From a virus, in IMG/VR virus record IMGVR_UViG_3300021560_000013, positions 1 to 64,000 of that record: a stretch of DNA of 64,000 nt; one strand, given 5' to 3'. Each line of letters starts with the position of its first letter. Positions within the stretch are counted from its first letter, which is position 1. Under the pieces are notes generated by a model, which worked only from the letters and a program-made list of their open reading frames with translations, was not told the origin of the DNA and ran no database searches. The translations under genes were made by a program, and so were the position numbers. This document shows, one piece after another, positions 1,760-61,661 of this stretch.

Positions 1760-2063
1760 CCTGCCGCCAGGACACCCGGACGAGTTCGTAGGACGGTCGA
1801 TCAACCCAGCAGAACAGATCAGGGTCCTCTTGTGCCGCAAGAAGGCCCAGGGCATCGTGGACTGGGAGAAGCTGTGGCCGTGGGCGGTCGCCAGGGTGCG
1901 CTGGCCGCATGACCGCGAGGAGCGCCACGAGTGGAAGCGGACGATCGGGTGGGCCGAGGGCGCGTTCCGGCGCGCCTACGAGGGTGAGGCGCTGCCGGTG
2001 GACATGAGCGCGCTCGTGATCATCGAGACGCGGATCACGTTCACCATCGACGCGCCGGACTAG
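1695..2063 (+). CDS. Hypothetical protein (start uncertain)
   Basis: ORF track; its TAG stop is the first 3 nt of the palindrome at 2061. Confidence 0.6.
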   Translation: MERVRKGPKVAVVAERPGLAHSLPPGHPDEFVGRSINPAEQIRVLLCRKKAQGIVDWEKLWPWAVARVRWPHDREERHEWKRTIGWAEGAFRRAYEGEALPVDMSALVIIETRITFTIDAPD

Positions 2064-2104
2064 CGCGCGTCATGTGCTATCCTCGGGCTACACGACCGAG
2101 GAGA
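2061..2104 (+). promoter_or_regulatory. Cassette-head element 1: palindrome + -10 (TATCCT) + leader CGACCGAGGAGA
   Basis: TAGCGCGC-GTC-ATGTGCTA at 2061-2079; leader 2093-2104; GTG at 2110. Confidence 0.85.
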
Positions 2105-2109
2105 CAGCA

Positions 2110-2433
2110 GTGTCACACACGTTTCACGATGCCCTTCCGGGCTACGACCAGCGCCAGATCCTGCACGACGGCTGCCGCGAGTGCGAGCACCGGGGCAAGG
2201 ACGTATCGACCGCGCTCGCGAACATGGACGCGCACACGTTCGGCAAGGCGTGGCGGCGCGCCTTCGACTGGCAGTCCTCGCACGGCGGCGGCTACGACGC
2301 CACCGGCCAGGTGAGTCACGCCGAGATCGCGGTCCTGAAGGCGATCTGGGGGATCCAGGTTCACCTGGAGCGTCGCGGGCTCCCGCTCGACGGGACCGCC
2401 CCGACGTTCGAGACCGAGGAGAACGCGATCTGA
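2110..2433 (+). CDS. Hypothetical protein (CxxC)
   Basis: GTG follows the conserved leader. Confidence 0.75.
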   Translation: MSHTFHDALPGYDQRQILHDGCRECEHRGKDVSTALANMDAHTFGKAWRRAFDWQSSHGGGYDATGQVSHAEIAVLKAIWGIQVHLERRGLPLDGTAPTFETEENAI

Positions 2434-2666
2434 TGGCTCGGCTACCGCACATCGTGGCTCAGTGGTACCGGCGCGAGCCGGACAACGAGGACGGGGAGTG
2501 GGTCGAGATGGGCGTGCCGAACACCGTCTCGACCGCTGAGCGCTGGGCGCGCGAGCAGTGCAAGCGCCACCCCGACCATCCGAACACTCGCGTGACCGTG
2601 GACGGCGACGAGATCGGCCAGTGGACGTACTCCGAGCGCCGACGCCGGGCGGTCAAGATCCAGTGA
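2433..2666 (+). CDS. Hypothetical protein
   Basis: TGATG coupling; begins MARLPHIVAQWY. Confidence 0.7.
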   Translation: MARLPHIVAQWYRREPDNEDGEWVEMGVPNTVSTAERWAREQCKRHPDHPNTRVTVDGDEIGQWTYSERRRRAVKIQ

Positions 2667-2980
2667 TCGGCTGGTACCTGCTCGGCAGGCGGCGCGGTCG
2701 CAAGCAGGCGGAGGCCGATCTCGACGCTCAGGCTGAGCGCCAGCGTCTACGCGCGCCCGAGCCCGGCCCGCCGGACGAGGTGCTGGTCGAGGAGCCGTCC
2801 GAGATCCCGATCTCGCGAGCGTCGCTGTACGACTACCGCAAGCTGCGGGGCTGGATCCTGCTGATGGTGATGCCGCTCGTGCTGCTTGGCTGGCTCGTGA
2901 ACCCGTGGATCTACTTCGCCGGGCTGCTCCCGTTCTTCTTCTCTGTCGGGTTCATCGTGGAGTACTGGGAGAACCTGTGA
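2663..2980 (+). CDS. Membrane protein
   Basis: GTGA coupling; two C-terminal hydrophobic segments. Confidence 0.7.
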   Translation: MIGWYLLGRRRGRKQAEADLDAQAERQRLRAPEPGPPDEVLVEEPSEIPISRASLYDYRKLRGWILLMVMPLVLLGWLVNPWIYFAGLLPFFFSVGFIVEYWENL

Positions 2981-3168
2981 GCACCTGCGGAGCAGTCTCG
3001 AACCAGGGCACCGTATGCGAGCGTGCGCCGCACGCCGAGGGTGACGGCTGCCACGAGGCGTTCGTGGACGGCGACTCACGGCGCTGGTGGGGCGACGCGC
3101 GCTGGGCACCGTGGGAGTGGATCGTCTACGAGTTCGCTGTCACAGATCCGCGCCGACCCTCGGTTTAG
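2977..3168 (+). CDS. Small Cys/His-containing hypothetical protein
   Basis: GTGA coupling; C-x9-C...H...H pattern. Confidence 0.6.
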   Translation: MSTCGAVSNQGTVCERAPHAEGDGCHEAFVDGDSRRWWGDARWAPWEWIVYEFAVTDPRRPSV

Positions 3169-3335
3169 AGAAGACAGCACGAGGAGGGCGGCAGCCCAAT
3201 CTGAGGGACTGGTCAGCTGCAGGTAGACCCGCCAGAGCCTCCCGTCACCCCGAGCCCGGATCTTCGATCTAAGGACCTTAGATCCGGGCTCCGACCACCT
3301 GTCAGATATTCGGCGGCTCGAACGACTAGTAGGGC

Positions 3336-3650
3336 ATGAGACCAAACGAGATCTTCCCCGACGCACCCCGCCAGCCCGGCATCCTGCTGATGCTGACCTT
3401 CGACCAGGCGACCGCGATCCGCGACGCCGTGACCTGCTTCGGCATGGCCGTGGACGGCGAGCTTGAAGCCATCCGCGACACCTACACCAAGAGCGACGGG
3501 CCGGACATGGGAGCGGCGAACGCGATGACCGACGACGCCGTCCGGCTCGCCTACGAAGTCCACTCGATGATCGAGCAGCAGCAGCTGCCGTACATCCGGC
3601 GGTTCGGGGCCTGGTGGCGAAAGCGCGCTCAGGCGCTCGGCCTGGAGTAG
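3336..3650 (+). CDS. Hypothetical protein
   Basis: ORF track; coding-like composition. Confidence 0.65.
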   Translation: MRPNEIFPDAPRQPGILLMLTFDQATAIRDAVTCFGMAVDGELEAIRDTYTKSDGPDMGAANAMTDDAVRLAYEVHSMIEQQQLPYIRRFGAWWRKRAQALGLE

Positions 3651-3661
3651 GCTCGCCGGAT

Positions 3662-3748
3662 GTGGGGCGACACGGGTCTTTCCTGCTGTTCGTGACGCTG
3701 TTCGCGCTGTACGCGTTCGTGGTGCTGAGGCTGCTCGCGAAGCTCTAG
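3662..3748 (+). CDS. 28-aa single-TM micropeptide MGRHGSFLLFVTLFALYAFVVLRLLAKL
   Basis: Hand-translated; TAGGCT -10-like box 8 nt upstream. Confidence 0.45.
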   Translation: MGRHGSFLLFVTLFALYAFVVLRLLAKL

Positions 3749-3828
3749 GGGATCCAGTCGTCCGAGTCGGTGAGGGCGATCGCGGCGACGATCACGAACA
3801 CGGCCACGACCGTCCAGAACACGGCCAT
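3745..3828 (-). CDS. 27-aa single-TM micropeptide MAVFWTVVAVFVIVAAIALTDSDDWIP
   Basis: Hand-translated; TAGGCT 6 nt upstream of ATG (leaderless geometry). Confidence 0.5.
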   Translation of the reverse strand: MAVFWTVVAVFVIVAAIALTDSDDWIP

Positions 3829-3850
3829 GCGGCCAGCCTAGCACTAGCCT

Positions 3851-3922
3851 AAGCGCACGTCATGTGCTATGCTGTAGGTGGAAGGTGGGGGCCTTCCTCC
3901 CTTCCGTTTCCGACCGAGGAGA
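3851..3922 (+). promoter_or_regulatory. Cassette-head element 2: palindrome + -10 (TATGCT) + stem-loop + leader
   Basis: AAGCGCAC-GTC-ATGTGCTA at 3851-3869; hairpin GGAAGG...CCTTCC; CCGACCGAGGAGA at 3910-3922. Confidence 0.85.
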
Positions 3923-3926
3923 CCAC

Positions 3927-4355
3927 ATGGACGCCACCACCTGGAACTACAACGGCTGGTTCGGCGTGCCGCGCGACATCACGCTGACGACCGGCGTGTT
4001 CGATGAGGACGCGCGGGACGTGTTCTGCCGAGGCCACTGTCACAGCTTGGCGCTGGCGCTGGAGGAGATGATCCCCGGCGCTGTGCTGCACGGGCTGTGG
4101 GACTACGGCGAGATCGTCCACGTCTTCATCGCGCTGCCGTGCGGGGACTACCTCGACGGCAACGGGCTCGTGGACGAGGACTTCCTGCTCCGCGCAGCGT
4201 CCGACGAAGGGTTCATCGAGATGCTCGACATCGCGGACATCGACTGGCTGGAGATCACCGGCGAGTATCGCGAGCGGCGCGTCGAGGACGCGAGGCCGTT
4301 CGCGCGAGCGCTGATCGAGCGTGAGCGACTCGGTTTGTTGACTGCCGCCAGATGA
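3927..4355 (+). CDS. Hypothetical protein, possible Cys-His-Asp (papain/transglutaminase-like) fold
   Basis: ATG follows the leader; GHCHSLALAL...VHVFI...YLDGNG. Confidence 0.6.
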   Translation: MDATTWNYNGWFGVPRDITLTTGVFDEDARDVFCRGHCHSLALALEEMIPGAVLHGLWDYGEIVHVFIALPCGDYLDGNGLVDEDFLLRAASDEGFIEMLDIADIDWLEITGEYRERRVEDARPFARALIERERLGLLTAAR

Positions 4356-4407
4356 GTGTTAGCGTTCTGGGGAGCGGCGTACGGGCGAGATCCTGAGCGC
4401 CGCTCCT

Positions 4408-4438: not shown

Positions 4439-4444
4439 CCCCGT

Positions 4445-4828
4445 GTGGGCTACTGGGACCAGGTCGCCGTCCACGAGGCGCGAGGGCACTCGCGCGGGGT
4501 CTCGATGCTTGCCGCGCGCTACGTGCTGGACGAGCGCCGCGATCCGTCCCACTTCCCGTGGGACGAGCTTCTGCACCCGCGCACGCGCACCGGCGAGTTC
4601 GAGTTCAAGGGCTCGACCGAGGGGGACATTCCCGCCATGACCGCCAAGCAGCTGCACAAGATGCTGAAGAAGGCCGGGTTCTCGCGCGTGGGCCAGAAGG
4701 GCTCGCATGCGATCTTCAAGCATCCAGCTGGCGGGCGGCTCGTGGTCGTGCCGACGCACTCGGGCTCGATCCCGCGCGGGACGCTGCGGCACATCATCGC
4801 CACAGCCCAGACGCCAGCCCTTGCGTAA
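4445..4828 (+). CDS. hicA: HicA-family mRNA interferase domain with an N-terminal WDELLHPRxxxGEF leader; no HicB partner nearby
   Basis: MTAKQLHKMLKKAGFSRVGQKGSHAIFKHP...VVVPTH...IPRGTLRHII is the HicA signature. Confidence 0.8.
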   Translation: MGYWDQVAVHEARGHSRGVSMLAARYVLDERRDPSHFPWDELLHPRTRTGEFEFKGSTEGDIPAMTAKQLHKMLKKAGFSRVGQKGSHAIFKHPAGGRLVVVPTHSGSIPRGTLRHIIATAQTPALA

Positions 4829-4849
4829 GCGCACGATGTGTGCTATCTT
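4827..4849 (+). promoter_or_regulatory. Cassette-head element 3: palindrome + -10 (TATCTT), with no leader or RBS following
   Basis: AAGCGCAC-GAT-GTGTGCTA overlapping the hicA stop; followed by non-coding structured sequence. Confidence 0.85.
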
Positions 4850-4854
4850 GTAGG

Positions 4855-5347
4855 TGCGGTCCTGAGGGGCCGTGGCCCCGGAGTGGCTCTTCTCCGGAGC
4901 GGAGATCGAAGCGAGCGCCCGATCCGCAGGGCTGGTGCCGAGATCCCGGAGGACGCGGGTTTGATTCCCGCGCGGGGTAGAGACTTGAGGCTATTGGGAC
5001 GCCTCTCTAGGCCGGTGATCGCAGTAGGGTCGCGGACCGGCCCCAGACTTCGGGACCGCTAGTCCCTGGGCGCACGGCAGTGCGTAACCTCCCGACGGGG
5101 AGAGATCCTGGGCGCGAGAGCGAAATGAGCGGACCGAACTCCCGCCAGCAACCAAGACCGAGCGCCAACTCGTGAGGGGTCAGCGAAGGAGAAGCAGTTG
5201 GCAGCCCTTACTGCTGACCGCGCTGGCGGGGGAAACTTCGGCCAGGCGTGCCGCCCTTGGGGGCGCGTCCAGGGCTGGGGCGCGAGGCACGCCCGGCCTT
5301 GCAACAGGGTAGGCGAGTGCCTACCGCCGCCGGTAAAAACCTGGCGC
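4855..5347 (+). ncRNA. Candidate large structured ncRNA (~490 nt), class unknown
   Basis: Own promoter, no credible ORF. Many nested helices: 4856-4867/5048-5059, 5139-5149/5222-5232, 5178-5185/5212-5219, 5240-5252/5286-5298, 5308-5314/5319-5325. T-loop-like arm at 4955-4971. Confidence 0.65.
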
Positions 5348-5406
5348 TAGCGCGCATCGTGCGCTATGCTCTAGGTGGGGCCGAGAGAGCCCAACGACCG
5401 AGGAGA
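5348..5406 (+). promoter_or_regulatory. Cassette-head element 4
   Basis: TAGCGCGC-ATC-GTGCGCTA + TATGCT; hairpin GGGCCGAGAGAGCCC; CGACCGAGGAGA at 5395-5406. Confidence 0.85.
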
Positions 5407-5410
5407 CCTG

Positions 5411-5602
5411 ATGGAACGAGCCTTCTACGACCTGAGACCTGACGTGCCGTACGAGCCCGGCGAGATCGCCACGCTCCAGCACGAGGGCCAGATCGACCGC
5501 GAGCGCCAGGCCGTCGAGCGCCACTACCGCAACGGCAACGAGCCCGCTCTCAGGCGGGCGATCGCCCGCTGGCACGCACGAGAGGAGAGGCCCGAGCGAT
5601 GA
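5411..5602 (+). CDS. Hypothetical protein
   Basis: ATG follows the leader. Confidence 0.7.
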   Translation: MERAFYDLRPDVPYEPGEIATLQHEGQIDRERQAVERHYRNGNEPALRRAIARWHAREERPER

Positions 5603-5928
5603 CCGAGGAGTTCCGCAAGAAGTTCGACCCGTCGCAGTGGCGGGTCCTGCACCCGCAGCAGTTCGTGGACAAGCGCATGCAGTTGCGCCGCCCCGAGCGC
5701 GGCGGGCTCGTTCGCTACGGCGTGCGCGCCTACAGGGGCGCGATCGTCCGCAAGGGCGACGACGGCAAGCCGCAGCACGCCACCTGCAACCACGCTCACA
5801 GCAAGCCGGGCGCAGCGCGCAAGTGCGCTGAGCAGGAGGCTCGCAAACGCAATCGTGCGCTGGCGCGCGGCGTCCCTGACGGCGTGCCCGGCGGCTACTA
5901 CGGACAGGCGAAGGAGGTGACCGAATGA
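5599..5928 (+). CDS. Hypothetical protein (CxHxH...C motif)
   Basis: ATGA coupling. Confidence 0.7.
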   Translation: MTEEFRKKFDPSQWRVLHPQQFVDKRMQLRRPERGGLVRYGVRAYRGAIVRKGDDGKPQHATCNHAHSKPGAARKCAEQEARKRNRALARGVPDGVPGGYYGQAKEVTE

Positions 5929-6125
5929 CCGGACCCTACGAGGCAATCACGCAGTACGCGCTGAACACGCCGTTCCACAAGGTGATCGACCAGCGCTACC
6001 CCAACGCTCGCGCGAGCAGCTACGCGACGCGCGAGCAGGCCGAGATCGCCGCGATGCGGCTGAACGGCAAGTGGCTGATCGCTGAGGCCGACCGCCAGGA
6101 GCGGTTGGTGGCGTACGCCAGCTAG
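5925..6125 (+). CDS. Hypothetical protein
   Basis: ATGA coupling; its TAG stop begins the palindrome at 6123. Confidence 0.7.
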   Translation: MTGPYEAITQYALNTPFHKVIDQRYPNARASSYATREQAEIAAMRLNGKWLIAEADRQERLVAYAS

Positions 6126-6174
6126 CACACGCCGTGTGCTAGGATCATTCTAGAATCAACCCGACCGAAGGAGA
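6123..6174 (+). promoter_or_regulatory. Cassette-head element 5
   Basis: Perfect arms TAGCACAC-GCC-GTGTGCTA + TAGGAT; leader variant CCCGACCGAAGGAGA at 6160-6174. Confidence 0.85.
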
Positions 6175-6179
6175 TGAAG

Positions 6180-7043
6180 ATGCAACTGGGATTCGGCATG
6201 AGCCGAGCGGTCCCGGAGGACGTGACCACTGCCTGGGGCGCGCGACTGATCGCCCCGGCGGACATCCTGTGGGACCGCCAGGATCTCGTCGCTGAGAACG
6301 ACGAGGCCAAGCAGGAACTGATCGCGTGGCTCAACGGCGAGCCCGAGGGCACCGGCGCGATCGCGAAGGCGCGCGACTGGCTGCGGGAGAACTACCGTGG
6401 CATGCGCCAGGACTGGGACGACGAGCACGTTCTCTACGAGGACGCCGACGGGACCATCATGGGCTCGACCAACGCGAGCTACGGCTACGTCTACGTCGCG
6501 GGCTGGCTGAAGCCTGACCGTCCGGAGCCGCTGACCGACGAGGGGCGCGAAGTGCTGCGCGACATCCGGCGCATGACGCAGCCGGGGCGCTACCACGACG
6601 CGCTGACCGTGGATCGCTACGAGGCGGTTCGCGCGGCGATCCCGGCTGAGCGCTGGCACACGAAGTACGGCTGGGCTGAGGAGGACGCCGCGAAGATGGG
6701 CGGCACCGGCCACGAGGTTCGCCTGTACGCCGTCTACGCCGACGGCGAGCGGCGCGAGATCCAGCCGAACCAGCGCTCGGGCGACTTCGAGTTCGGCTAC
6801 CACGGCAGCGGGCCGCACGCGGTTGCTGAGGCGATCGTCAACGACCGGCTCGGCGTCGAGAACGACTCGGCGGACGACGACACGTACGTGCCACCGGCGC
6901 GGGCGTTCGACTTCGTGACCGAGGTGACGGAGCCCGCCGGGCGGCGCGACGACGGCCACATGGAGTACGAGACCCGGACGGTGCTCGCCGCCGACGTGGA
7001 CCGTTGCATCGAGGCGGCGCGCGAGAAGGCCGAGGCGTCGTGA
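6180..7043 (+). CDS. Two-domain hypothetical protein; C-terminal DUF6166-like motif
   Basis: FEFGYHGSGPHAVAEAI resembles the FEWGYxGSGP motif; start is 6174 or 6180. Confidence 0.65.
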   Translation: MQLGFGMSRAVPEDVTTAWGARLIAPADILWDRQDLVAENDEAKQELIAWLNGEPEGTGAIAKARDWLRENYRGMRQDWDDEHVLYEDADGTIMGSTNASYGYVYVAGWLKPDRPEPLTDEGREVLRDIRRMTQPGRYHDALTVDRYEAVRAAIPAERWHTKYGWAEEDAAKMGGTGHEVRLYAVYADGERREIQPNQRSGDFEFGYHGSGPHAVAEAIVNDRLGVENDSADDDTYVPPARAFDFVTEVTEPAGRRDDGHMEYETRTVLAADVDRCIEAAREKAEAS

Positions 7044-7426: not shown

Positions 7427-7682
7427 GATCACCGCGCACTACCGGGCCGCGAACATCTACGCGATCGGCAACTGGGCCGTCGCGGAGATCAAGCGGCTCG
7501 GCGCTGACGCCGAGGGCAACGTGCTCGCGAGCGAGGAACTGTGCGACCTGGCGGACTGGTGCTGGGCCTGGATCGAGAACGACCCGAAGGACAACGGCGG
7601 CGACGCCAGCGTCCGGCGCGGCATGCGCCCGTACTGGCCCCGGATCTACCGCGCCTACCTGGACTTGCGTGGTAGCGCATGA
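7401..7682 (+). CDS. Hypothetical protein
   Basis: ORF track; stop lies inside the next palindrome. Confidence 0.65.
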   Translation: MSQARSAPEITAHYRAANIYAIGNWAVAEIKRLGADAEGNVLASEELCDLADWCWAWIENDPKDNGGDASVRRGMRPYWPRIYRAYLDLRGSA

Positions 7683-7730
7683 CAGGCGCTACACTTCCCG
7701 GCGGTTGCAGGCACAGTCCGACCGAGGAGG
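7673..7730 (+). promoter_or_regulatory. Cassette-head element 6
   Basis: TAGCGCAT-GAC-AGGCGCTA + TACACT; CCGACCGAGGAGG at 7718-7730. Confidence 0.8.
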
Positions 7731-7735
7731 ACAGG

Positions 7736-8647
7736 ATGGGTCGCCGTACGAACGGCTACAAGCTTGAGCTTGGTATCGAGCGCATCACGCCGCTGATGGC
7801 GACGGAGATGCTGCTCGCCAACACGATCAACCGCAGCATCCGGCCCAGACGCGTCAGCCAGTACGCCCGCGACATGAAGGCGGGCAACTGGGTGCCGGTG
7901 GGCGAGCCGATCGCGATCTCCGACAAGGGCGACCTGCTGAACGGCCAGCACCGGCTGCACGCGGTGATCGAGGCGGACGTGGACGTGGACATCCCCGTGG
8001 CGCGCGGCGTCCCGGCGCAGCTGCAGGACTCGATGGACCGGGGGCTCAAGCGCACGTTCGGAGACGTGCTCAAGCTGCACTACGACGAGGTGAACGTCAC
8101 GATGCTCGCGGCGGCGGTCAAGCAGGTTCACCAGTACCGGGCGACCGGGATCATGGGCCGCACCGGCGGGCATCACCCGGCCACGAGCGCGACGAACGCC
8201 GAGTTGGTCTCGACCTACGAGGCCGAGCGCAACCTGCGCGAGTCGGTCACCGTCGTGCATCGTGTACGCAACGGCGGGCAGTGGTTCGCGCCGGGCCTGC
8301 TGATGTCGCTGCACTACCTGTTCAGCGAGGCCGACCCTGCTGAGGCCGACCCGTTCTTCGAGGCGTTCGCGACCGGCGAGGACCAGCGGCGCGGCTCCGC
8401 GATCCTGGCGCTGCGCAAGCTCGGCACGCGGCGTCCGATGGACTTCACCTCGCAGGCGCAGGCGGCGATCATCATCAAGGCGTTCAACTTCTGGCGAGCG
8501 GGCCGCGCGATCAACACCGGCAACCTGCGCTGGCGCGCCGGTGGATCCTCGCCCGAGCAGTTCCCGAAGATCCTCAGCCCGGACGAGATCGCTGACGGCC
8601 AGGTCGAGGTGGGCATCGAGGAAGTGGAGGAGCCGGTGGCAGTCTGA
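7736..8647 (+). CDS. ParB/Srx N-terminal-like domain protein
   Basis: NTINRSI...YARDM...PIAI...LLNGQHRLHAV motif. Confidence 0.7.
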   Translation: MGRRTNGYKLELGIERITPLMATEMLLANTINRSIRPRRVSQYARDMKAGNWVPVGEPIAISDKGDLLNGQHRLHAVIEADVDVDIPVARGVPAQLQDSMDRGLKRTFGDVLKLHYDEVNVTMLAAAVKQVHQYRATGIMGRTGGHHPATSATNAELVSTYEAERNLRESVTVVHRVRNGGQWFAPGLLMSLHYLFSEADPAEADPFFEAFATGEDQRRGSAILALRKLGTRRPMDFTSQAQAAIIIKAFNFWRAGRAINTGNLRWRAGGSSPEQFPKILSPDEIADGQVEVGIEEVEEPVAV

Positions 8648-12720: not shown

Positions 12721-12766
12721 GAGCGCACGTCATGTGCTAAGCTGGGTAGGCACCCGACCGAGGAGG
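12721..12766 (+). promoter_or_regulatory. Cassette-head element 7
   Basis: GAGCGCAC-GTC-ATGTGCTA + TAAGCT; CCCGACCGAGGAGG at 12753-12766. Confidence 0.85.
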
Positions 12767-12770
12767 AACA

Positions 12771-12926
12771 GTGAAGAAGAAACTGACCGACGAGCAGCTG
12801 GGCGTGCTCGTAAGCCGCGCCGAGGACATCGTGAGGAACAGCGGCATCACCACGCTGCCGATTGCGACCGATGCCGTCCGCGCGACCGTGCTGGCGACCC
12901 TGATCGACCAGGAGCGTGGAGCGTGA
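12771..12926 (+). CDS. 51-aa hypothetical protein (MKKKLTDEQLGVLVSRAEDIV...)
   Basis: Hand-translated; GTG follows the leader; not in the ORF track. Confidence 0.7.
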   Translation: MKKKLTDEQLGVLVSRAEDIVRNSGITTLPIATDAVRATVLATLIDQERGA

Positions 12927-13127: not shown

Positions 13128-13192
13128 TAGCGCACGACGTGTGCTATACTCTAAGCGGAGGCCGAGAGAGCCTCCACCCCCGACCGAGGAGA
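13128..13192 (+). promoter_or_regulatory. Cassette-head element 8
   Basis: TAGCGCAC-GAC-GTGTGCTA + TATACT; hairpin GGAGGC...GCCTCC; CCCGACCGAGGAGA at 13179-13192. Confidence 0.9.
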
Positions 13193-13196
13193 CGAA

Positions 13197-15014
13197 GTGA
13201 CCACACTGAAGCATGCTTACGAGCGCCAGCGCGCTGCTGATTTCGCTCGCGAGCAGGCTCACGAGGTCTACGAGCGGATCTACTGGGACCTGGAGCCACG
13301 CGCTCGGGGCACGGTGGACATCCACGAGCACCCTGACTACAAGGCCGCTGTCGCTGAGGCCGACCGGCTCACCGACGAGGTGGCCGGTCTTCGCGCGCAG
13401 GCTGGCGGGAAGGTGTTCCGGATCGTAGACACGAAGCTGGAAGAGCTTGCCACGCGGATCGAGAAGCTGAACAAGAAGGCGACCAAGCTCGGGACCGACC
13501 CGATCGTGCTGACCGTCTCCGACGAGCACGAGCAGGAAGTGACCCGCGAGCTTCCGCCCGGCTATGACCCGGCCACGACCCTGGACGACTGGGGCAAGGC
13601 TGGCGTCGAGCGCGTCACCGACTACACCTACATCACGGTCAACGGCGAGACGCCGATGGTGGCTGGGAAGTGGGTGTTCGTGGCAACGCTCGACCACGAG
13701 GCGGACGAGGGCGCTGACGAGAGCGTAGGCATCCGCCGGGCTCCGATCGGAGCGTTCACGGTGGCCCGGATCGGCCAGGAGGCGGCGGATGCCGTCGAGA
13801 AGGCCGACCTGACCGACTACCGTCACGCTCGCGCCGACTGCGATCACTGCGGCTGGAACCGCCGCCGGAAGCAGACCTACGTGCTCTACGAGACGGCCAC
13901 TGGCGAGCTTCGCCAGATTGGCTCGACCTGCTTGCGCGACTACACCGGGGCCAACAACCCCGAGCGCGTCGCGGCCTGGGCCGAGTGGCTTGAGGGCCTG
14001 TACGGCGACCTGGGCGGCGGCGAGTACGACGAGGACGCCGGTGGTGGCGGCGGTCGCATCGCGATGCGCCAGCGGGACTTCCTCGCGAACGTCGTCGCGG
14101 TGATGCACGAGAACGGGTGGGTGCCGCGCTGGTCCCGCTCGGACTACGGCGACAGCGAGCGCAACTACAACGCCACCGCCGACGTGGCCGAGTCGAACTA
14201 CTTCGAGCGCAAGCCGAAGTTCAAGGTCCCCGTCACCGACGAGGATTACGCCGAGGCCGACGCCGCGCTTGAGTGGGTTCGCGAGGATCTGGCCGAGCGT
14301 GACGACCTGGACGAGTTCCAGCACAACCTCGTGACCTACACCCGCTCCGACTACGTGCCGAAGAAGGGCTCCGGATTCGTGGCCTACACGATCATGGCCC
14401 GGCGGCGCGAGATCGAGGGGTTCATCAAGAAGGAGCGCGCCGAGAAGGTCAAGGCGACCAGCGAGTGGTTCGGTGAGGTGAAGTCCCGAGTGAAGGGCCT
14501 GACGTTCACTGTGACTTTCACCCGCGAGTTCGAGTCCCGCTTCGGTGTCACCACGCTGACGAAGGGGATCACTCCGGAGGGGAACTTGATCACCTGGTTC
14601 GGAGCCGGTGGCCTTGAGCAGGGCAAGACCTACACGATGGCCGCGACGATCAAGTCGCACGACCTGGACAAGTACGCGGACAACGCGAAGACCACGGTTA
14701 TCACCCGCCCCGCGAAGATCGAGGAGATCGACACCGAGAACGGCGAGGAGGCGGGCGAGATGGAGGTGACCGCTACCGCCGCCGAGCGCGAAACCGCGCG
14801 CCTGAAGCGGCTCGACCCGAAGGACGTGGACGAGCACCTGGACAGCGCGATCGCCTCCTACAACGACCTGACCAACACGATGGAGCGAGGCGTCAGCGGG
14901 TCCTGGGAGCGCGAGTACTACGCCGACCAGGAGCAGCGGCTGAAGCGGCTGATCCACCGGTTGGAGAACGACCAGCGAGCGCTGGCGGCGATGACAACAC
15001 GAGAGGAGCAGTGA
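13197..15014 (+). CDS. 605-aa protein with Zn-finger (CDHC...GSTC) and probable C-terminal OB-fold
   Basis: Motifs seen in the translation; the fold is inferred. Confidence 0.7.
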   Translation: MTTLKHAYERQRAADFAREQAHEVYERIYWDLEPRARGTVDIHEHPDYKAAVAEADRLTDEVAGLRAQAGGKVFRIVDTKLEELATRIEKLNKKATKLGTDPIVLTVSDEHEQEVTRELPPGYDPATTLDDWGKAGVERVTDYTYITVNGETPMVAGKWVFVATLDHEADEGADESVGIRRAPIGAFTVARIGQEAADAVEKADLTDYRHARADCDHCGWNRRRKQTYVLYETATGELRQIGSTCLRDYTGANNPERVAAWAEWLEGLYGDLGGGEYDEDAGGGGGRIAMRQRDFLANVVAVMHENGWVPRWSRSDYGDSERNYNATADVAESNYFERKPKFKVPVTDEDYAEADAALEWVREDLAERDDLDEFQHNLVTYTRSDYVPKKGSGFVAYTIMARRREIEGFIKKERAEKVKATSEWFGEVKSRVKGLTFTVTFTREFESRFGVTTLTKGITPEGNLITWFGAGGLEQGKTYTMAATIKSHDLDKYADNAKTTVITRPAKIEEIDTENGEEAGEMEVTATAAERETARLKRLDPKDVDEHLDSAIASYNDLTNTMERGVSGSWEREYYADQEQRLKRLIHRLENDQRALAAMTTREEQ

Positions 15015-19300: not shown

Positions 19301-19687
19301 ATGGCCCAGTTCCTGACCGGCCCGTTCAAGATCAAGCGGGGCGTCACCTCACCGGCCTACCGCGTCCTGCTGCGCCAGGCGAACAAGCAGCCGGTGGACC
19401 TGAGCCAGGCCGATCACACGCACCTGGTGATGCGGCTGCGCGGCCAGTCCACGCCCACGGTGGACAGCCAGGCGGCGATCATCCAGCAGGGCGACGCCGT
19501 GACCGGCACCGATGTCGGCGTGGCCGAGTACACCTGGCAGCCGGGCGACACCGACATCGCCGGGGTCTACGACGCCGAGTTCGCGCTCTACGACATCAAC
19601 GGCCAGGTCTACGCGCGAGCCCCGAGCGACGGCTACCTCGAAGTCGTGATCATGGGCAATCTCTCGGCGGAAGGCACCCTGCCCTAG
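19301..19687 (+). CDS. BppU-N-like (baseplate upper/adaptor) small protein
   Basis: IKRGVTSP...PVDLS...GVAEYTWQPGDTDIAGVYDAEF. Confidence 0.65.
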   Translation: MAQFLTGPFKIKRGVTSPAYRVLLRQANKQPVDLSQADHTHLVMRLRGQSTPTVDSQAAIIQQGDAVTGTDVGVAEYTWQPGDTDIAGVYDAEFALYDINGQVYARAPSDGYLEVVIMGNLSAEGTLP

Positions 19688-19747
19688 CGCACGTTGTGTG
19701 CTATACTCCTGGTGGAGGGAAAAGCCCTCCATCCCCGACCGAGGAGG
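19685..19747 (+). promoter_or_regulatory. Cassette-head element 9
   Basis: TAGCGCAC-GTT-GTGTGCTA + TATACT; hairpin TGGAGGG...CCCTCCA; CCCGACCGAGGAGG at 19734-19747. Confidence 0.9.
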
Positions 19748-19751
19748 CCAC

Positions 19752-19922
19752 ATGAAGCTGAAGATCAAGGCGCACTTCGCCAATGGCGCGGTGCGGACGG
19801 TCGCAGCGACGACCTTCGAGGCGGCAGTCAAGAAGGCCGAGAAGTACCAGGGTGCTCTCGGTGAACTGCTCTACGTGACCGAGAAGGTCACGCGGACCCG
19901 GCCAGAAGGAGCAACGGCATGA
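19752..19922 (+). CDS. Hypothetical protein
   Basis: ATG follows the leader. Confidence 0.7.
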   Translation: MKLKIKAHFANGAVRTVAATTFEAAVKKAEKYQGALGELLYVTEKVTRTRPEGATA

Positions 19923-21648: not shown

Positions 21649-21727
21649 CCAGCGCGCTTAGCCTGGCCTGGCCCCGTTCGCAGCGCTTTCCTCTCTCCGA
21701 GGCTGCGGGCGGGGCACAACAATCCAT

Positions 21728-21758
21728 CTGGGGGAGTGCCCAGAACCGCGCTTAGTAT
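21728..21758 (+). promoter_or_regulatory. Class-2 (putative late) promoter of the head operon
   Basis: CTGGGG-N19-TAGTAT; same geometry at 19264 and 27576. Confidence 0.55.
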
Positions 21759-21767
21759 CGGCTCACC

Positions 21768-23261
21768 ATGAGCGTCACTGCGCCCCCAGAAGCTCCAGCC
21801 GACGCGCTCCAGCTGCGAGAGGCGATGTACGCGCTCTCGCGCGAGAGCGTCGAGTTCCCAGAAGACCTGCAAGAGGCCCGCGTCCAGCGACTCCTGGACA
21901 GCGGGCTCGACCTGGAGGAAGCGACCGCCCGCGAGGAGCAGGAACGCTCCAAGCTGGTGCCGGTCCACATCCTGCGCCCGTGCCTCGGCAAGGGCCGTGG
22001 CCGTCACATCTACGAGGCGGACATGCTGCAGGAGAACGCCCACAAGTTTGCGGGCTGGCGGCAGTTCATCGACCACCTCTCACCGGAAGCCCGGCGCGCT
22101 GCGAAGGGCCTGCCCCGCTCGATCCGAGATCTCGGCGGGCGGATCGTGGAGAGCTACTGGGACGGCAACGTCCCGGCGGACGACAAGAAGAAGTACGGCC
22201 AGGGAGCGGTCGTCGGCTGGTCGTTGCCGACGCCGTTCATCCGCGAACTGGCCGAGAACGATCCCGAGCTTGTCGAGTGCTCGATCTCCGCGAACGCCAC
22301 CGGCGTGCAGCCGCGCATGGTGGACGGCAAGCGGGCCTGGCTGGTCGAGGGCATCGAGGACCGTGGAAGCGTTGACTGGGTGACCGAGGCGGGCGCTGGT
22401 GGCCGCGTCGTCGCGTTGATGGAGTCTGCCTACGAGGAGGACGGGATGGGACTGCTGGAGTCGATGACCGACGAGGAGTTCATCGCCTACGTCGAAGAAG
22501 TCCGGCCCCACCTGCTCACCGAGCAAGGCGACGGTGACGCGGAGGACGAGGCGGATCAGGGCGACGACGAGCTTGAGGAGATGGTGGCGCGGATGATGAA
22601 GCGCAACCCCAAGCTCACCCGCGCCCAGGCCGAGGCGATGGCGAAGAAGGCGCTCGCGAAGTCGAGCCAGGAAGCGGCGGAAGCCGACGACACAGAGGAG
22701 ACAGACATGGGTGCGATCACCCCAGAGGCGCTCCAGGAAGCTCTCCAGTCCGAGGACTTCCAGAGCGTGCTCGGCCCGATCATTGACGACCGGGTCAAGA
22801 CTCTCGTTGAGTCGGCGGTGGCCGACGAGCGTGAGTTGATCCGCGCGGAGGCGCGAGCCGACGCCGACCGGCAGCTGGAACTGCGCGACATGCGCGACGC
22901 GGCTCACCGGCAGATCACCGAGGCCAAGCTCCCGGACGCGTTCGCGAACCGGGCCAAGTCTCAGTTCCAGCTGACGGAGACGGGGCCGACGCCGGGGCTC
23001 GACGTGGTGGACGACGTTGACGACGACGGCAACGTCACCAAGAAGGCGTCCGAGAAGCTGAGCGAGGCGGTCACCGCCGCCATCCAGGATCAGCGCGAGC
23101 TTCTCGCGGCGGCGAACCCGACAGCGGTTCGCGGCCAGGGACCTGGCACTCCCGCCAAGCGCGGCGAGGGTGACGACGAGCCGAAGAAGGGCGAGGGAAC
23201 GCTCTACGGCGCGCTCCTCCAGGAAGCAGGGGTCGATCCCTCCACGGCGTGGGACGACTGA
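21768..23261 (+). CDS. Prohead protease-scaffold fusion
   Basis: FIDH...RSIRDLGG...SISA...SVDWVTEAGAGG protease-like core, acidic coiled-coil tail, position before the capsid gene. Confidence 0.8.
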   Translation: MSVTAPPEAPADALQLREAMYALSRESVEFPEDLQEARVQRLLDSGLDLEEATAREEQERSKLVPVHILRPCLGKGRGRHIYEADMLQENAHKFAGWRQFIDHLSPEARRAAKGLPRSIRDLGGRIVESYWDGNVPADDKKKYGQGAVVGWSLPTPFIRELAENDPELVECSISANATGVQPRMVDGKRAWLVEGIEDRGSVDWVTEAGAGGRVVALMESAYEEDGMGLLESMTDEEFIAYVEEVRPHLLTEQGDGDAEDEADQGDDELEEMVARMMKRNPKLTRAQAEAMAKKALAKSSQEAAEADDTEETDMGAITPEALQEALQSEDFQSVLGPIIDDRVKTLVESAVADERELIRAEARADADRQLELRDMRDAAHRQITEAKLPDAFANRAKSQFQLTETGPTPGLDVVDDVDDDGNVTKKASEKLSEAVTAAIQDQRELLAAANPTAVRGQGPGTPAKRGEGDDEPKKGEGTLYGALLQEAGVDPSTAWDD

Positions 23262-48557: not shown

Positions 48558-48559
48558 GC

Positions 48560-52457: not shown

Positions 52458-53587
52458 GCAAGCACCGCCAGCTGGTCTACGGCGCGCCCATTCCCCAGGA
52501 CTTCCTGGACGCGCTCCAGGAGTTCATCGGCATGGCCCACTCGGGCCTGCAGCTGTCCGTCGTCACGCCGGGCACCGCCAGCCAGCCCGCCAACCAGGTG
52601 CAGGTCGCTGCCGCGTCCGGCAACAGCCAGGTCGGCATCGCGATCAACGGACTGTGGCGCTACGTCGCCTCACCGCCCGCGCCGATCTCGATCTCGGGCG
52701 CGCCCGGCACCTACGACATCTTCGCCTGCACCGGCAACAACAGCTTCAGCGTCAACGCGACGCCACCGCCGCCCGAGCTTGACGCGACCGACTACACGTT
52801 CACACTCCAGGCGCTCCCCCAGGGCAGCACGCCGACGAGCCCGCCGAACTACCGCAAGATCGGGGAGTGCGTGTTCGACGGCACGCGGATCCTGTACCTG
52901 CGCCAGACGCTCGGCGGCGGCGACAGCTACCGCCAGTTCCAGGCGGGCGACCTGAAGCTGTCCGCCGTCGCGAGCCCGCCGCCGGGCTGGCTGCTGTGCG
53001 ACGGGACCGCGTACAGCCGGGCGACGTACGGCGTCCTCTACGCCGCCCTGGGAGGGTCAGCCTCGCCGCACGGCCAGGGAGACGGCTCGACTACCTTCAA
53101 CGTGCCGGACTACAAAGGCCGCGTTCCGATGGGCGTCGGCACCGCCGCCGGGGCAGCCGGGGCTACCAGCCACACGCTCGGAGCCAAGGGCGGCGAGGAG
53201 ACCCACGTACTGCAGAACGCCGAGATGCCCAGCCACAGCCACGGCGGCTTCGACGGCTACGCCTCGACCGACCACTACCACTACGGCGGCACCAGCAACG
53301 ACTCGCCCGACCATGCGCACAACCTGTCGCTCTCGGCCAACAACTCGCCCGTCACCCAGTCGGGCGGGCAGGGTTGCGCGACGATCGGCGGCGGGTCGAG
53401 CACCAGCGGCGCGACCGCCCGGCACTCGCACACGTTCACGACCTGGTGGCAGTCCCAGACGCGCAACAGCTACGACGGCTCGGTCTCCGACCCGAACCAC
53501 CGTCACGCGATCAGCGCCGACGGCGGCAGCGGCCCTCACAACACGCTGATGCCGTACACCACCTGCAACGTATTCATCAAGTTCTAG
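52454..53587 (+). CDS. Short tail fibre with collar domain
   Basis: PPGWLLCDG...SRATYGVLY...GDGSTTFNVPD...GGEETHVL...HNTLMPY...FIKF. Confidence 0.85.
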   Translation: MSKHRQLVYGAPIPQDFLDALQEFIGMAHSGLQLSVVTPGTASQPANQVQVAAASGNSQVGIAINGLWRYVASPPAPISISGAPGTYDIFACTGNNSFSVNATPPPPELDATDYTFTLQALPQGSTPTSPPNYRKIGECVFDGTRILYLRQTLGGGDSYRQFQAGDLKLSAVASPPPGWLLCDGTAYSRATYGVLYAALGGSASPHGQGDGSTTFNVPDYKGRVPMGVGTAAGAAGATSHTLGAKGGEETHVLQNAEMPSHSHGGFDGYASTDHYHYGGTSNDSPDHAHNLSLSANNSPVTQSGGQGCATIGGGSSTSGATARHSHTFTTWWQSQTRNSYDGSVSDPNHRHAISADGGSGPHNTLMPYTTCNVFIKF

Positions 53588-53630
53588 CTCACGACGTAAC
53601 ACATGCTGCGCGCTCGTGTATCCTGTGAGC

Positions 53631-53712
53631 ACACGAGGACCCCGAACGCAACTCTCCTCGGTCGGGATTGAAACGTCCGGGCCTCTGAAACGGCTCCTAC
53701 GGGAGCCGTTTC
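53631..53712 (+). ncRNA. Candidate antisense sRNA complementary to the conserved cassette leader
   Basis: TATCCT at 53619-53624; hairpin 53635-53685 with loop CTCTCCTCGGTCGGGA; then a terminator-like hairpin. Confidence 0.6.
53687..53712. terminator. Hairpin between convergent operons
   Basis: GAAACGGCTCC-TACG-GGAGCCGTTTC (UNCG loop). Confidence 0.7.
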
Positions 53713-53761
53713 GCCTTCCAGGGCCAGGTACCGGGTGGGGGCTCGGAGGGGCGCAGCGGGC

Positions 53762-59425: not shown

Positions 59426-59596
59426 CTATGGCTTACAGCGTTTGCAGGCTGGGTGACCGTCTCGGATGCACTCGGAGCGCCTGCGATCGACTACCGGGTT
59501 TTTGAGAACCACGCTCAGTAGCCACCTGCATTTGGGCCGGTGGTAGCGGGCCTCTGGGTTGTCGGTCTCGATCTTGACCATCGGGTCGTTGTCCAT
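59426..59596 (-). CDS. Small Zn-binding (Ada metal-binding-like) protein
   Basis: YHRPKC...ACKRCKP; leader variant CCCGACCCGAGAGGAGG. Confidence 0.65.
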   Translation of the reverse strand: MDNDPMVKIETDNPEARYHRPKCRWLLSVVLKNPVVDRRRSECIRDGHPACKRCKP

Positions 59597-59691
59597 GTTC
59601 ACCTCCTCTCGGGTCGGGATGGTTTGCCGTATACATCGGCAGATCAGGCGTTGGACTTGAGTGCCCTGGCTCGCGACTTGTGTTTGGGGCC

Positions 59692-59722
59692 TTGACACGG
59701 AGCACGCGATCTGTGTTAGAGT
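59692..59722 (+). promoter_or_regulatory. Promoter TTGACA-N19-TAGAGT containing a degenerate palindrome
   Basis: AGCACGC-GAT-CTGTGTTA overlaps the spacer and -10. Confidence 0.45.
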
Positions 59723-59796
59723 GCCCGGCTCAATCGCCGTGATGCTCACGCACAAGCGTCAGCGGACCGGCGTCTACCAAGGGTGGTGAGTGGCTT

Positions 59797-60510
59797 GTGA
59801 GTGCCACTGAGCAGGAACCTGCCGACCAGCAGGACGGCCAGAAGGATCTGTCGTTCAGCGAACGAGTCGCGCTCGACGTGCTGGCGATCTTCGCCGCCCG
59901 CGACATGATTGCTGACGGCGCGGTGGACATGTACGCCGTAGCCGACGAGATCCAGCCCACGATCTTCGACGCGAAGGTCAAGGTCGAGGGCGACCGTTCC
60001 AAGGTCGGAGTCACACCGTCTCACCTGATGGACAAGCACTTCCCCGAGGTGCCCAAGCGCGACAGCGTGGACAGCACCGACGCGGATCTCCTGGACTACA
60101 CCGACGCGGTCTACGCCAAGGTGAAGGACCAGGTGTTCCGAGTGTTGAACATCATGCCGGACGGCATCATCCAGTCCCGCCTCGCCTCCGCGCTGGGCGA
60201 AGGCTGGGTGCTGTGTCGCATGAAGGGCAAGCGCGGTGCCGAGGAGGTTGCGTACGTCTCTCGCAGCCGCAAGTGCATCGACGCGGACAACAACGGCCCG
60301 GCGTACCACCGGGTCCAGCTGGCTATCGCTCGCGCGTCGGCACTGACCGGCATGTCGATCGAGCGGGTGCCCGAGCACGGCACCTGGTTCCAGCGGCAGC
60401 ACAAGCGGTCGCTGAAGAACAGCCTCGAAGCCGGTGACAACGTGGTCATCGCGGCGCTCGACTCGGGGGACGAACCCGACGACGGCCCCGACGAGGACGA
60501 CGATGAGTAG
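59797..60510 (+). CDS. Hypothetical protein
   Basis: ORF track. Confidence 0.7.
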   Translation: MSATEQEPADQQDGQKDLSFSERVALDVLAIFAARDMIADGAVDMYAVADEIQPTIFDAKVKVEGDRSKVGVTPSHLMDKHFPEVPKRDSVDSTDADLLDYTDAVYAKVKDQVFRVLNIMPDGIIQSRLASALGEGWVLCRMKGKRGAEEVAYVSRSRKCIDADNNGPAYHRVQLAIARASALTGMSIERVPEHGTWFQRQHKRSLKNSLEAGDNVVIAALDSGDEPDDGPDEDDDE

Positions 60511-61213
60511 TACCCAGGGAGCCCCTTCGGGGGCTCCCGACCCTAACCCGGAGAAGCGGGTGACCTGGCAGCTTACCGAGGCCGGTGTTCACCCGTGGGA
60601 GGACGACGGCGTGATTGGCTGGGTGATCGTCCGGCTGAAGGCCGGGGCGACCGCGTACCAGATCCGCGCCGAGTCGGTGGACGGCGCGGAGGGCTGGCCC
60701 GAGCCCGGCGTGTACCTGGGCCAGAACGCTGCCGAGAAGGCGGTGGCTGTCGCCAAGGACCGCATCCGGCACGAGCGCGGCGCGCCGACGATCAAGGCCC
60801 AGGCGAAGAAGCCGAAGGCGACCGAGGGCGGCAAGCGGGTGCGCCAGCTGCACGAGGCCAAGCGCGCCGGGCAGCGCGACGCCGAGGATGAGGTGTTCAA
60901 GATGCAGGTGGCGCTCGCGGAGACGATCAGTTTCCTGGAGCGGTTCGACCTGCCGGATCTCACCTGGTCCGAGGACGTGCAGGAGCACCTGAACGACATC
61001 GTCCACGACCTGGAGCGCTGCCGGGGCTGGAACGAGCGGGCGGTGGACACGGTGTGGGCGATGATGGATGACGTGAGCCGCCAGCGGCGGATCCGCGATC
61101 TGCGCCGCCGCGCCGACGATCCAAGCTCGACCAGCTGGGAGCGCCGGAACGCTCGCGAGTTGTACGAGAAGCTGGAGCGGAAGTACCGCCAGCAGAAGAA
61201 CCTCGGTGCTTAG
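60503..61213 (+). CDS. Hypothetical protein
   Basis: ATG at 60503 overlaps the upstream gene end. Confidence 0.7.
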   Translation: MSSTQGAPSGAPDPNPEKRVTWQLTEAGVHPWEDDGVIGWVIVRLKAGATAYQIRAESVDGAEGWPEPGVYLGQNAAEKAVAVAKDRIRHERGAPTIKAQAKKPKATEGGKRVRQLHEAKRAGQRDAEDEVFKMQVALAETISFLERFDLPDLTWSEDVQEHLNDIVHDLERCRGWNERAVDTVWAMMDDVSRQRRIRDLRRRADDPSSTSWERRNARELYEKLERKYRQQKNLGA

Positions 61214-61608
61214 GCGGCAGCGGCGGTGGCGGCAGCCTCGCGCTGCCGCTTACGCTCCGCTCGCTGCCACCGGCGGCGCTTGCGTCCTTCGACCTTCGCG
61301 CACAGCGGGCAGTGAGAGCCGCGCCGGAAGAACTTCGTGATTGCGGGCTGCTGCACCCCCAGCGACTCCCCGATCTCCCGGTCGCTGTAGCCCATGTCGC
61401 GAAGCTCGTGGACGGCGTGCCGGATCAGGTCGTCGTACGTGTCGCGCAACCCCCGGATCTGCTCCAGCGAATACGTGTCCTCGTACCCGTCGGTGAAGCG
61501 CTCTCCTAAGCTCTCGTACGTCCGGGTGATCATGCCCATGAGTTCGGACACTTCGTCGGTCGGGAACGGCCTTCGCTCATTCCTCCAGGAATGACTCGAA
61601 TCGCTCAT
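61210..61608 (-). CDS. Helix-turn-helix DNA-binding protein (candidate regulator of the palindromes)
   Basis: AVHELRDMGYSDREIGESLGVQQPAITKFF; CxxC; operator in its own promoter. Confidence 0.75.
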   Translation of the reverse strand: MSDSSHSWRNERRPFPTDEVSELMGMITRTYESLGERFTDGYEDTYSLEQIRGLRDTYDDLIRHAVHELRDMGYSDREIGESLGVQQPAITKFFRRGSHCPLCAKVEGRKRRRWQRAERKRQREAAATAAAA

Positions 61609-61613
61609 TGGCT

Positions 61614-61661
61614 CTCTCCTTGGTCGGGGTCCACCTAGAGTATAGCGCACGATGTGAGCCA
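61614..61661 (-). promoter_or_regulatory. Cassette-head element 10 (in front of the HTH gene)
   Basis: Minus strand TGGCTCAC-ATC-GTGCGCTA + TATACT; leader CCCGACCAAGGAGAG. Confidence 0.85.

Follow-up and report, generated by a model that had tools for sequence, protein, structure and literature searches.

Short sequence elements repeated across phage genomes have been described in several groups to date. The start-associated sequence (SAS) of Cluster K mycobacteriophages is a 12-13-nt asymmetric word over the ribosome-binding site (RBS) of 11-19 non-structural genes per genome; it is conserved beyond the needs of 16S pairing, often has a second upstream element and, according to its authors, may involve a 'host- or phage-encoded RNA or protein' (PMC3203893). 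Immediately before SAS lies the extended start-associated sequence (ESAS), two imperfect inverted repeats of 17 bp whose spacing varies between 4 and 13 bp (PMC3203893), and SAS-like motifs occur in Microbacterium Cluster EF (PMC7302621). Perfect dyad repeats of 17 bp, arranged 7-3-7, are found in at least 30 copies per genome in Cluster O mycobacteriophages (PMC4351075) and 18-bp inverted repeats in Cluster EG (PMC7302621), while Microbacterium Cluster EC/EI phages carry 12 copies of an 18-bp intergenic motif, TAGaCTcTaGGTgTaAgC, 21-30 bp upstream of starts (PMC7302621). For the promoter early stem-loop (PeSL) cassettes of T4-type phages, a role in recombination-mediated shuffling has been proposed (PMC2839356, PMC4122927). 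Here, a repeated element is described from a window of 64,000 nt, the first 64 kb of the 110,271-bp IMG/VR viral contig IMGVR_UViG_3300021560_000013 of an uncultured phage (GC 68%; CheckV completeness 89%). In its full form it joins a 19-bp dyad, a -10 box merged with the gene-proximal end of the dyad, a stem-loop at the predicted +1 and a conserved leader before the start codon. The copies are probably host sigma-A extended -10 promoters, each lying inside the operator of a dimeric repressor encoded by the phage. No description of the sequence of this element was found in the literature.

A sequence-only reading of the window had reported ten dispersed copies. A search with the pattern TAGCRCACNNNRTGYGCTA, allowing ≤2 mismatches, recovered exactly ten sites, compared with 0.12 expected and a maximum of 2 in dinucleotide shuffles, so that the motif frequency is above background. 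Nine dyads are on the plus strand, beginning at 2061, 3851, 4827, 5348, 6123, 7673, 12721, 13128 and 19685, and one is on the minus strand, at 61643-61661. All ten are real, but the number undercounts the system, as the whole contig holds ~28 promoter-type copies; a copy at 64014 (-) straddles the window end. Four related metagenomic phages of 122-134 kb (G001-G004) were found via the motif itself and have 16-24 copies each, the range across the clade being 16-29 per genome. The dyads occupy 1-20 kb and 61-108 kb of the contig, with none in the virion structural block at 21.7-52.5 kb, and a copy-free structural block is likewise present in the relatives. The description of the set as an early/accessory regulon was too narrow, since all non-virion-structural DNA is covered and the dyad-driven operons include those of the large terminase, a conserved 682-aa gene, MuF and SSB. 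Among 185,579 prokaryotic species genomes (596 Gb), the exact dyad gave 3 isolated single-copy matches; this near-absence argues against a host regulon and indicates that the dyad binder is probably phage-encoded.

Three of the relatives, G001, G002 and G004 (122-125 kb), share ~74% nt identity with the contig over half its length, whereas G003 (134 kb) is far more distant, and comparison among these phages showed the non-structural arms to be highly mosaic. None of the five genomes, of which two are complete, yielded an integrase or resolvase (tyrosine or serine recombinase), and no sigma factor is conserved across them, one being present in G004 only; a search of the same genomes for a single-subunit RNA polymerase was also negative, though its control was uninformative. 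On these grounds the phages appear lytic and reliant on the host polymerase. Among 50,697 phage records, megablast and tblastn detected no close cultured relative. The primase-helicase has ~29% identity to those of Arthrobacter phages, with weaker matches in Gordonia and Microbacterium phages. A 21-nt match to Gordonia phage Stormageddon was rejected as chance, consisting of a single leader word with dyad matches at control level.

The anatomy of the promoter was derived from 114 dyads, giving 108 oriented sites, aligned from the five genomes. The consensus is a perfect 9-W-9 palindrome of 19 bp, TAGCRCACG-W-CGTGYGCTA. A TANNNT hexamer with free nnn positions begins at a terminal TA in 101 of the 114 dyads, against ~29% expected, and is normally one-sided and gene-proximal; it occurs on both sides in 7 dyads only. 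The latter are apparent divergent promoter pairs on one operator, as at G001 86499, G002 75575 and G004 36905, where a single dyad is flanked on both sides by TANNNT, hairpin and leader. The sole systematic asymmetry lies at position 15, which is T in ~84% of oriented sites (90/108) compared with 28% for the equivalent base at the mirror position, and the G at -14 is invariant (108/108). The T at position 15 and the invariant G16 together form the TGn of an extended -10, whose selection is superimposed on the dyad, and conservation of T-A-n-n-n-T with free nnn is what recognition by a group-1 sigma factor predicts. The -35 is not conserved: TTG stands exactly 6 nt before the dyad at 18 of the 108 sites, other registers reaching ≤4. 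This register gives a 17-nt spacer, so that the dyad equals the 17-nt spacer plus the first two -10 bases, and relative to the promoter the operator extends from about -29 to -11. A scan for canonical -35/-10 pairs found no promoter in 1-20 kb. The outer TA of the distal arm is conserved despite having no -10 role. A segment made of the -10 and sTAGGTG is found at 24-32 of the 108 sites; 25 of its 27 copies have a dyad and the other two stand behind degenerate dyads. Downstream, a Shine-Dalgarno sequence and an open reading frame (ORF) with high GC at third codon positions (GC3) follow 90 of the 108 sites, at a median distance of 45 nt. Upstream, the stop codon of the preceding gene is the dyad's own TAG or TAA at 31/108 sites, with a TGA inside the dyad at 7 more, and stop codon, operator and promoter overlap within 23 bp.

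It is proposed that the housekeeping (sigma-A/sigma-70 type) RNA polymerase of the host would read these sites as -35-independent extended -10 promoters of the form TGn-TAnnnT, each embedded in the right-hand half of an operator of 19 bp whose dyad would be recognised by a phage-encoded dimeric protein. Upon infection, the ~28 promoters of the non-structural genome would all be fired by the host polymerase in unmodified form, the accumulating repressor would then shut them together, and the structural block would be read from a separate promoter. With transcription starting at the 7th or 8th nt past the -10, each transcript would open on a GC-rich stem-loop whose loop is purine-rich, followed by the leader CCGACCGAGGAG. 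As the half-site holds the sigma-contacted bases at -15/-14 and -12/-11, occupancy should exclude RNA polymerase, and repression would result. Three tandem dyads at contig 83365-83430 bear on the same point: one overlaps TTGGCA, the second forms the 17-nt spacer before TACTAT and the third covers +1, where it can only repress. Taken with the half-site and the conserved outer TA of the distal arm, this leads to a preference for a repressor over an activator. The gene behind the cluster, at contig 83466-85253, encodes a 595-aa collagen-like protein with Gly-X-Y repeats and a signal peptide, and the predicted operators make it the genome's most heavily operator-guarded gene; cluster and gene together span L006:5365-7253. 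The data show directly the anatomy of the sequence, its statistics and its conservation; that the promoters are active, where transcription starts, that the sites are repressed, which protein binds them and what the hairpin does are inferred from these. The earlier proposal of one co-regulated promoter set under a dimeric DNA-binding protein fits every sequence-level test that was run.

The ten modules of the window, the promoter of the structural block and a candidate small RNA gene are laid out as follows.

2061..2112 (+), module 1: dyad 2061-2079, its TAG being the stop codon of the upstream ORF 1695-2063; -10 TATCCT 2078-2083; no hairpin; leader ACGACCGAGGAG 2092-2103; GTG 2110.
3851..3929 (+), module 2: dyad 3851-3869; -10 TATGCT 3868-3873; discriminator GTAGGT; +1 hairpin ~3880-3905; leader CCGACCGAGGAG 3910-3921; ATG 3927.
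4827..4874 (+), module 3: -35-like TTGCGT at exactly 17-nt spacing; dyad 4827-4845; -10 TATCTT 4844-4849; GTAGGT; +1 hairpin 4856-4873; neither leader nor ORF, heading a ~490-nt non-coding stretch.
5348..5413 (+), module 4: dyad 5348-5366; -10 TATGCT 5365-5370; CTAGGT; weak hairpin ~5377-5392 with loop GAGAGA; leader ACGACCGAGGAG 5394-5405; ATG 5411.
6123..6182 (+), module 5: perfect dyad 6123-6141, its TAG being the stop of ORF 5925-6125; -10 TAGGAT 6140-6145; leader with a one-base insertion, CCGACCGAAGGAG, 6161-6173; ATG 6180.
7673..7738 (+), module 6: dyad 7673-7691 (2 mismatches); -10 TACACT 7690-7695; leader CCGACCGAGGAG 7718-7729; ATG 7736.
12721..12773 (+), module 7: dyad 12721-12739; -10 TAAGCT 12738-12743; short leader region without hairpin, leader 12754-12765; GTG 12771.
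13128..13199 (+), module 8: perfect dyad 13128-13146; -10 TATACT 13145-13150; +1 hairpin 13157-13175 (GGAGGC-CGAGAGA-GCCTCC); leader 13180-13191; GTG 13197 of a conserved 605-aa gene.
19685..19754 (+), module 9: perfect dyad 19685-19703, its TAG being the stop of ORF 19301-19687; -10 TATACT 19702-19707; +1 hairpin 19714-19730; leader 19735-19746; ATG 19752.
61606..61661 (-), module 10: TTGTGC before the dyad; dyad 61661-61643; -10 TATACT 61644-61639; CTAGGT; leader CCGACCAAGGAG 61627-61616; ATG 61608 of a 132-aa ORF with weak HTH-like PHROG matches.
21721..21770 (+), structural-block promoter: AATCCATCTGGGG 21721-21733; ~19 nt; TAGTAT 21753-21758; 9 nt; ATG 21768.
53616..53718 (+), candidate small RNA gene: conserved GTGTATCCT with -10 TATCCT 53619-53624; terminator hairpin 53687-53712.

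The hexamers at the last TA of the dyads agree with those read earlier (TATCCT, TATGCT, TATCTT, TATGCT, TAGGAT, TACACT, TAAGCT and TATACT three times), and the conserved leader was likewise recovered, CCGACCGAGGAG or a variant with ≤1 mismatch standing before the start codon at eight of the ten sites, with the insertion variant at 6123 and no leader at 4827. The continuation given for several copies as (C)TAGGTGG is present as (C/G)TAGGT at 3851, 4827, 5348 and 61661, and the hairpin is clear at 3851, 4827, 13128 and 19685 and weaker at 5348 and 7673. Each copy was said to head genes or a non-coding RNA candidate; a Shine-Dalgarno sequence and a high-GC3 ORF follow nine of the ten, 4827 being without. 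At window 4827-5347 (+) no high-GC3 ORF occurs before the next module and there is no Rfam match, nor did any Rfam family match within the window. Among the dyad-driven genes, window 8820-11702 (+) encodes a 960-aa protein with two PG_binding_1 domains as well as PG_binding_3 domains.

Module 9 is the last dyad promoter ahead of the structural block, whose own promoter is without dyad, hairpin or CCGACCGAGGAG leader and is conserved in G001, G002 and G004. That the structural block has a promoter of its own would make the dyad promoters a separate temporal class. The structural operon mRNA would be nearly leaderless, and a late activator may bind at the AATCCATCTGGGG box.

The RNA part of the module was analysed by folding from the predicted +1, by counting hairpins of fixed geometry and by a positional test against shuffles. 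An offset of 6 or 7 from the -10 to the start of a hairpin was found at 38 and 37 of the 108 sites, respectively, against 2.5 in shuffles (~15-fold). The 43 hairpins recovered have 26 distinct 5' arms and GAGAG-like loops that are 82% purine. At orthologous promoters, including those of module 8 in G001, G002 and G004, the hairpin is kept with different arms (GGAGGC/GCCTCC, GCGGTC/GACCGC and GCGGCC/GGCCGC). Nine hairpins of the same geometry show both-sided changes in 5 of 6 stem pairs, although pairing was the criterion by which they were selected and only the diversity of the arms therefore counts as evidence. Stem-loops that stabilise mRNA classically stand at the very 5' end, within 0-4 nt of it, and in about half of the sites the hairpin begins at the predicted +1/+2. 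By this analogy the +1 hairpin would presumably act as a 5'-end stabiliser; a boxB-type protein-binding site is a possible alternative role, by comparison with lambda-type nut sites, in which a boxB hairpin with a GNRA-like purine loop is combined with boxA and an N-like protein.

The leader CCGACCGAGGAG is a Shine-Dalgarno sequence with a 5' extension. At ≤1 mismatch it occurs 27 times in the contig, 16 of these within 120 nt downstream of a dyad, and 30-37 times in G001, G002 and G004, and it is essentially absent from G003, where the dyad is retained. Pairing with 16S rRNA is possible for AGGAG alone, and the CCGACC extension therefore needs another explanation. A candidate is offered by the putative small RNA gene at 53616-53718, whose first hairpin presents an apical CTCCTCGGTCGG (53654-53665) that is the exact antisense of the leader. 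The gene lies directly after the last tail gene, and the TAG stop of that gene at 53585 opens the dyad half-site TAGCTCACGACGT. The last tail gene itself, at window 52454-53587 (+), is tail-fibre-like and escapes simple ORF filters. The small RNA is syntenic in the contig, G001 (L031:14901-15025), G002 (L045:4310-4435) and G004 (L037:9915-10036, minus), and comparison of the four sequences showed four compensatory pairs; the terminator has a U-tract in the relatives and a weak tail in the contig. Among the matches listed, further copies of the anti-leader RNA were limited to the three known relatives or chance matches. Together, the four sequences suggest that the small RNA is a trans-acting anti-leader RNA. 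In G003, the RBS word is GAGGTAGG, 23 of its 34 copies preceding ORFs, and a 500-nt non-coding gap at 102626-103147 of the G003 contig (L054) contains several strong hairpins and a CU-rich tract; one hairpin loop, CCUACCUC (UUCCUACCUC), is antisense to that word, so that this region may be what G003 has in place of the anti-leader RNA. Shut-off might then be two-tiered, the repressor closing ~28 promoters and the small RNA blocking translation of ~25 early/middle mRNAs via its apical CUCCUCGGUCGG, in which case the invariance of the RBS word would come from its being targeted throughout by a single trans-acting phage RNA; this scheme is possible but doubtful.

As to the protein that would bind the dyad, Pfam and PHROG scans of ~70 proteins recognised a single DNA-binding protein conserved in all five genomes, an 85-aa winged helix-turn-helix (wHTH) protein encoded at contig 67236-67493; the scans yielded no other universally conserved DNA-binding protein, HTH_3 genes not being universal. 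It belongs to the HTH_17/MerR-like (MerR/Xis-type) winged-helix family, and its AlphaFold model (predicted local distance difference test score, 77) has its nearest structural matches in the RacA-DNA and BldC-DNA complexes and in GlnR/TnrA, and is also near small-terminase DNA-binding domains (PHROG 57; 7lwr, 1j9i). In 5/5 genomes the promoter of the wHTH gene has an intact proximal and a degenerate distal half-site (TAACGCGCGTCGTGTGCTA-CCCT in the contig, TACGCCAACATCGTGAGCTA-AGAT in G003). A weakened operator ahead of this gene is the pattern expected of a negatively autoregulated repressor gene and would make it the last to be silenced. These features make the wHTH protein the best candidate for the dyad binder, to be taken as a tentative assignment. 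ESM Atlas and PDB sequence searches with the other conserved small proteins gave nothing usable, save weak small-terminase leads for a 96-aa gene beside the large terminase. A homologue of the wHTH protein is also present on a 264-kb contig.

Several observations weigh against a repressor system of this kind. The large terminase lies 1.6 kb downstream of the wHTH gene, and this proximity together with the resemblance to small terminases means that the wHTH protein may be packaging-related. Most of the small proteins are ORFans, among which the true binder could be hidden. The +1 hairpin is present at only about half of the promoters and the leader at ~60%, while 13 of the 114 dyads are without TANNNT and some are inside coding sequence. 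The host is presumed to be actinobacterial from the 68% GC, the TANNNT promoters and protein matches of 25-30% to actinophages. Furthermore, most sites are without a -35, and the intrinsic strength of the promoters is an assumption, which leaves room for an activator or sigma-appropriation model in which a dyad-bound phage protein would replace the missing -35 and recruit host RNA polymerase to what would be middle promoters, in the manner of the T4 MotA box or of a class II or MerR-like activator. Such a model would account for the lack of a conserved -35 next to an invariant element upstream of the -10 and for the non-early functions in the regulon (large terminase, MuF, SSB), and the best binder candidate has the fold of the MerR family, whose members bind promoter spacers. 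However, the half-site contains the -12/-11 and -15/-14 bases touched by sigma, sites that have a -35 show a spacer of 17 nt, compared with 19-20 nt at MerR-type promoters, and the dyad over +1 in the triple cluster is compatible with repression only; moreover, the non-structural arms show no dyad-free promoter from which a first activator could be made, the weakened-dyad ones excepted. An activator is therefore considered unlikely.

The remaining explanations have lower probability. The dyad might be the site of a host transcription factor, used by the phage to sense host physiology: its outer six bases, TAGCAC...GTGCTA, correspond to the outer part of the HrcA CIRCE half-site, and 19-bp 9-1-9 dyads over the -10 are typical for actinobacterial repressors of the DtxR/IdeR type. 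The TAGCAC arms are nevertheless 7 nt apart, as opposed to 13 nt in CIRCE, and the motif is common to a phage clade with many copies per genome; a host regulon was rejected on the prokaryotic genome scan, and a host factor is very unlikely. The units might instead be homology patches that shuffle gene cassettes, a notion carried by the earlier comparison with PeSLs, since a promoter and a stem-loop are repeated between small ORFs as in T4-type phages (PMC2839356, PMC4122927), the non-structural arms are mosaic and the dyad abuts the upstream stop at 31/108 sites. In a crude gene-level test, however, synteny breaks and gene gain or loss were not in excess at dyad junctions (odds ratios 0.8-1.9, p = 0.33-0.62), and shuffling would leave the dyad symmetry, the orientation and the TGn asymmetry unexplained; as the function of the element it is highly improbable, although cassette shuffling may occur as a side effect. 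Finally, the palindrome might function by folding, in RNA or in DNA, for instance to terminate the preceding cassette without a U-tract or to mark a site of processing: it could form a GC-rich stem of 8-9 bp, G5 and T15, a frequent combination, would make a G-U pair on the sense strand, and the coding region upstream ends within the dyad or abuts it. Against this, the arms vary independently, Watson-Crick counts equalling the independence expectation at each variable pair, with zero compensatory variation and pair 9-11 anti-correlated, while the sequence itself is kept across 101 sites and five genomes. It is thus sequence rather than pairing that is conserved, as for the site of a dimeric protein. 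With a terminator scan at background level as well, and with the dyads of the triple cluster making no sense as terminators, the hairpin or terminator reading was dropped as improbable in the extreme.

If the repressor model holds, one 23-bp sequence would serve as stop codon, operator and promoter and be copied ~28 times, a very economical design by which a large lytic phage would need only host polymerase and one small protein to run and silence its whole non-structural programme, and a defined, portable promoter-operator pair would be available for high-GC Actinobacteria. The module joins three unexplained classes of actinophage repeat, namely dyad repeats, -10/discriminator motifs and SAS-like RBS words. 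Two-tier shut-off, if true, would be the first mechanistic explanation of SAS-type RBS words, whose purpose has been open since 2011, and the matching antisense RNA makes that purpose directly testable.

Phage repressors with many operators include lambda Cro/CI at OR/OL, the repressors of the Cluster A stoperators and that of the conserved inverted repeats of Streptomyces phage phiC31. As in these systems, one phage protein would act at many dispersed sites, with operators overlapping the core promoter and an autoregulated repressor. The phages concerned are temperate, however, and stoperators are asymmetric 13-mers inside transcription units, whereas the phages described here are apparently lytic and each promoter is merged with its operator, the proximal half-site supplying TGn-TA. 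The c4 RNA of P1/P7 and the sar RNA of P22 are phage antisense RNAs that mask an RBS, with one or two targets in the immunity region; the candidate anti-leader RNA likewise has a loop complementary to an RBS but would match ~25 mRNAs via the shared leader. At MerR-type activated promoters the dyad lies in a 19-20 bp spacer between a good -35 and -10, as opposed to the 17 nt and mostly absent -35 found here.

Among the repeats introduced at the outset, SAS shares with the leader the position of an invariant RBS word, but the sequences are unrelated (SAS GGGATAGGAGCCC versus leader CCGACCGAGGAG). Whereas ESAS has a variable spacer and lies directly upstream of SAS, the dyad described here is a fixed 9-1-9 fused to the -10, ~25-30 nt upstream of the leader with the +1 hairpin between, and a matching candidate antisense RNA is present, which sets it further apart from SAS/ESAS. 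The Cluster O and EG repeats are also numerous short dyads of apparently lytic actinophages for which a dimeric binder is predicted; the Cluster O sites are mostly promoter-unassociated and unoriented (PMC4351075), in contrast to a dyad fused to the -10 and co-oriented with its gene. Compared with the published consensus, the first 13 nt of the EC/EI motif are TAnnnT plus cTAGGTg, the same -10 and discriminator segment as here, again in lytic high-GC actinophages, but that motif is asymmetric, has no upstream dyad and belongs to ~53 kb genomes encoding a sigma factor. PeSLs resemble the element in that a host-type promoter and a stem-loop recur together between small ORFs, in regions of a large lytic phage genome that are plastic (PMC2839356, PMC4122927), and differ in having no operator dyad and in being sigma-70 -35/-10 early promoters. 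The element lacks the defining features of SAS/ESAS, PeSLs, stoperators, Cluster O repeats and MerR promoters. Judged by its sequence, it would work like a multi-operator repressor system, with the layout of a PeSL and an RBS word of the SAS type.

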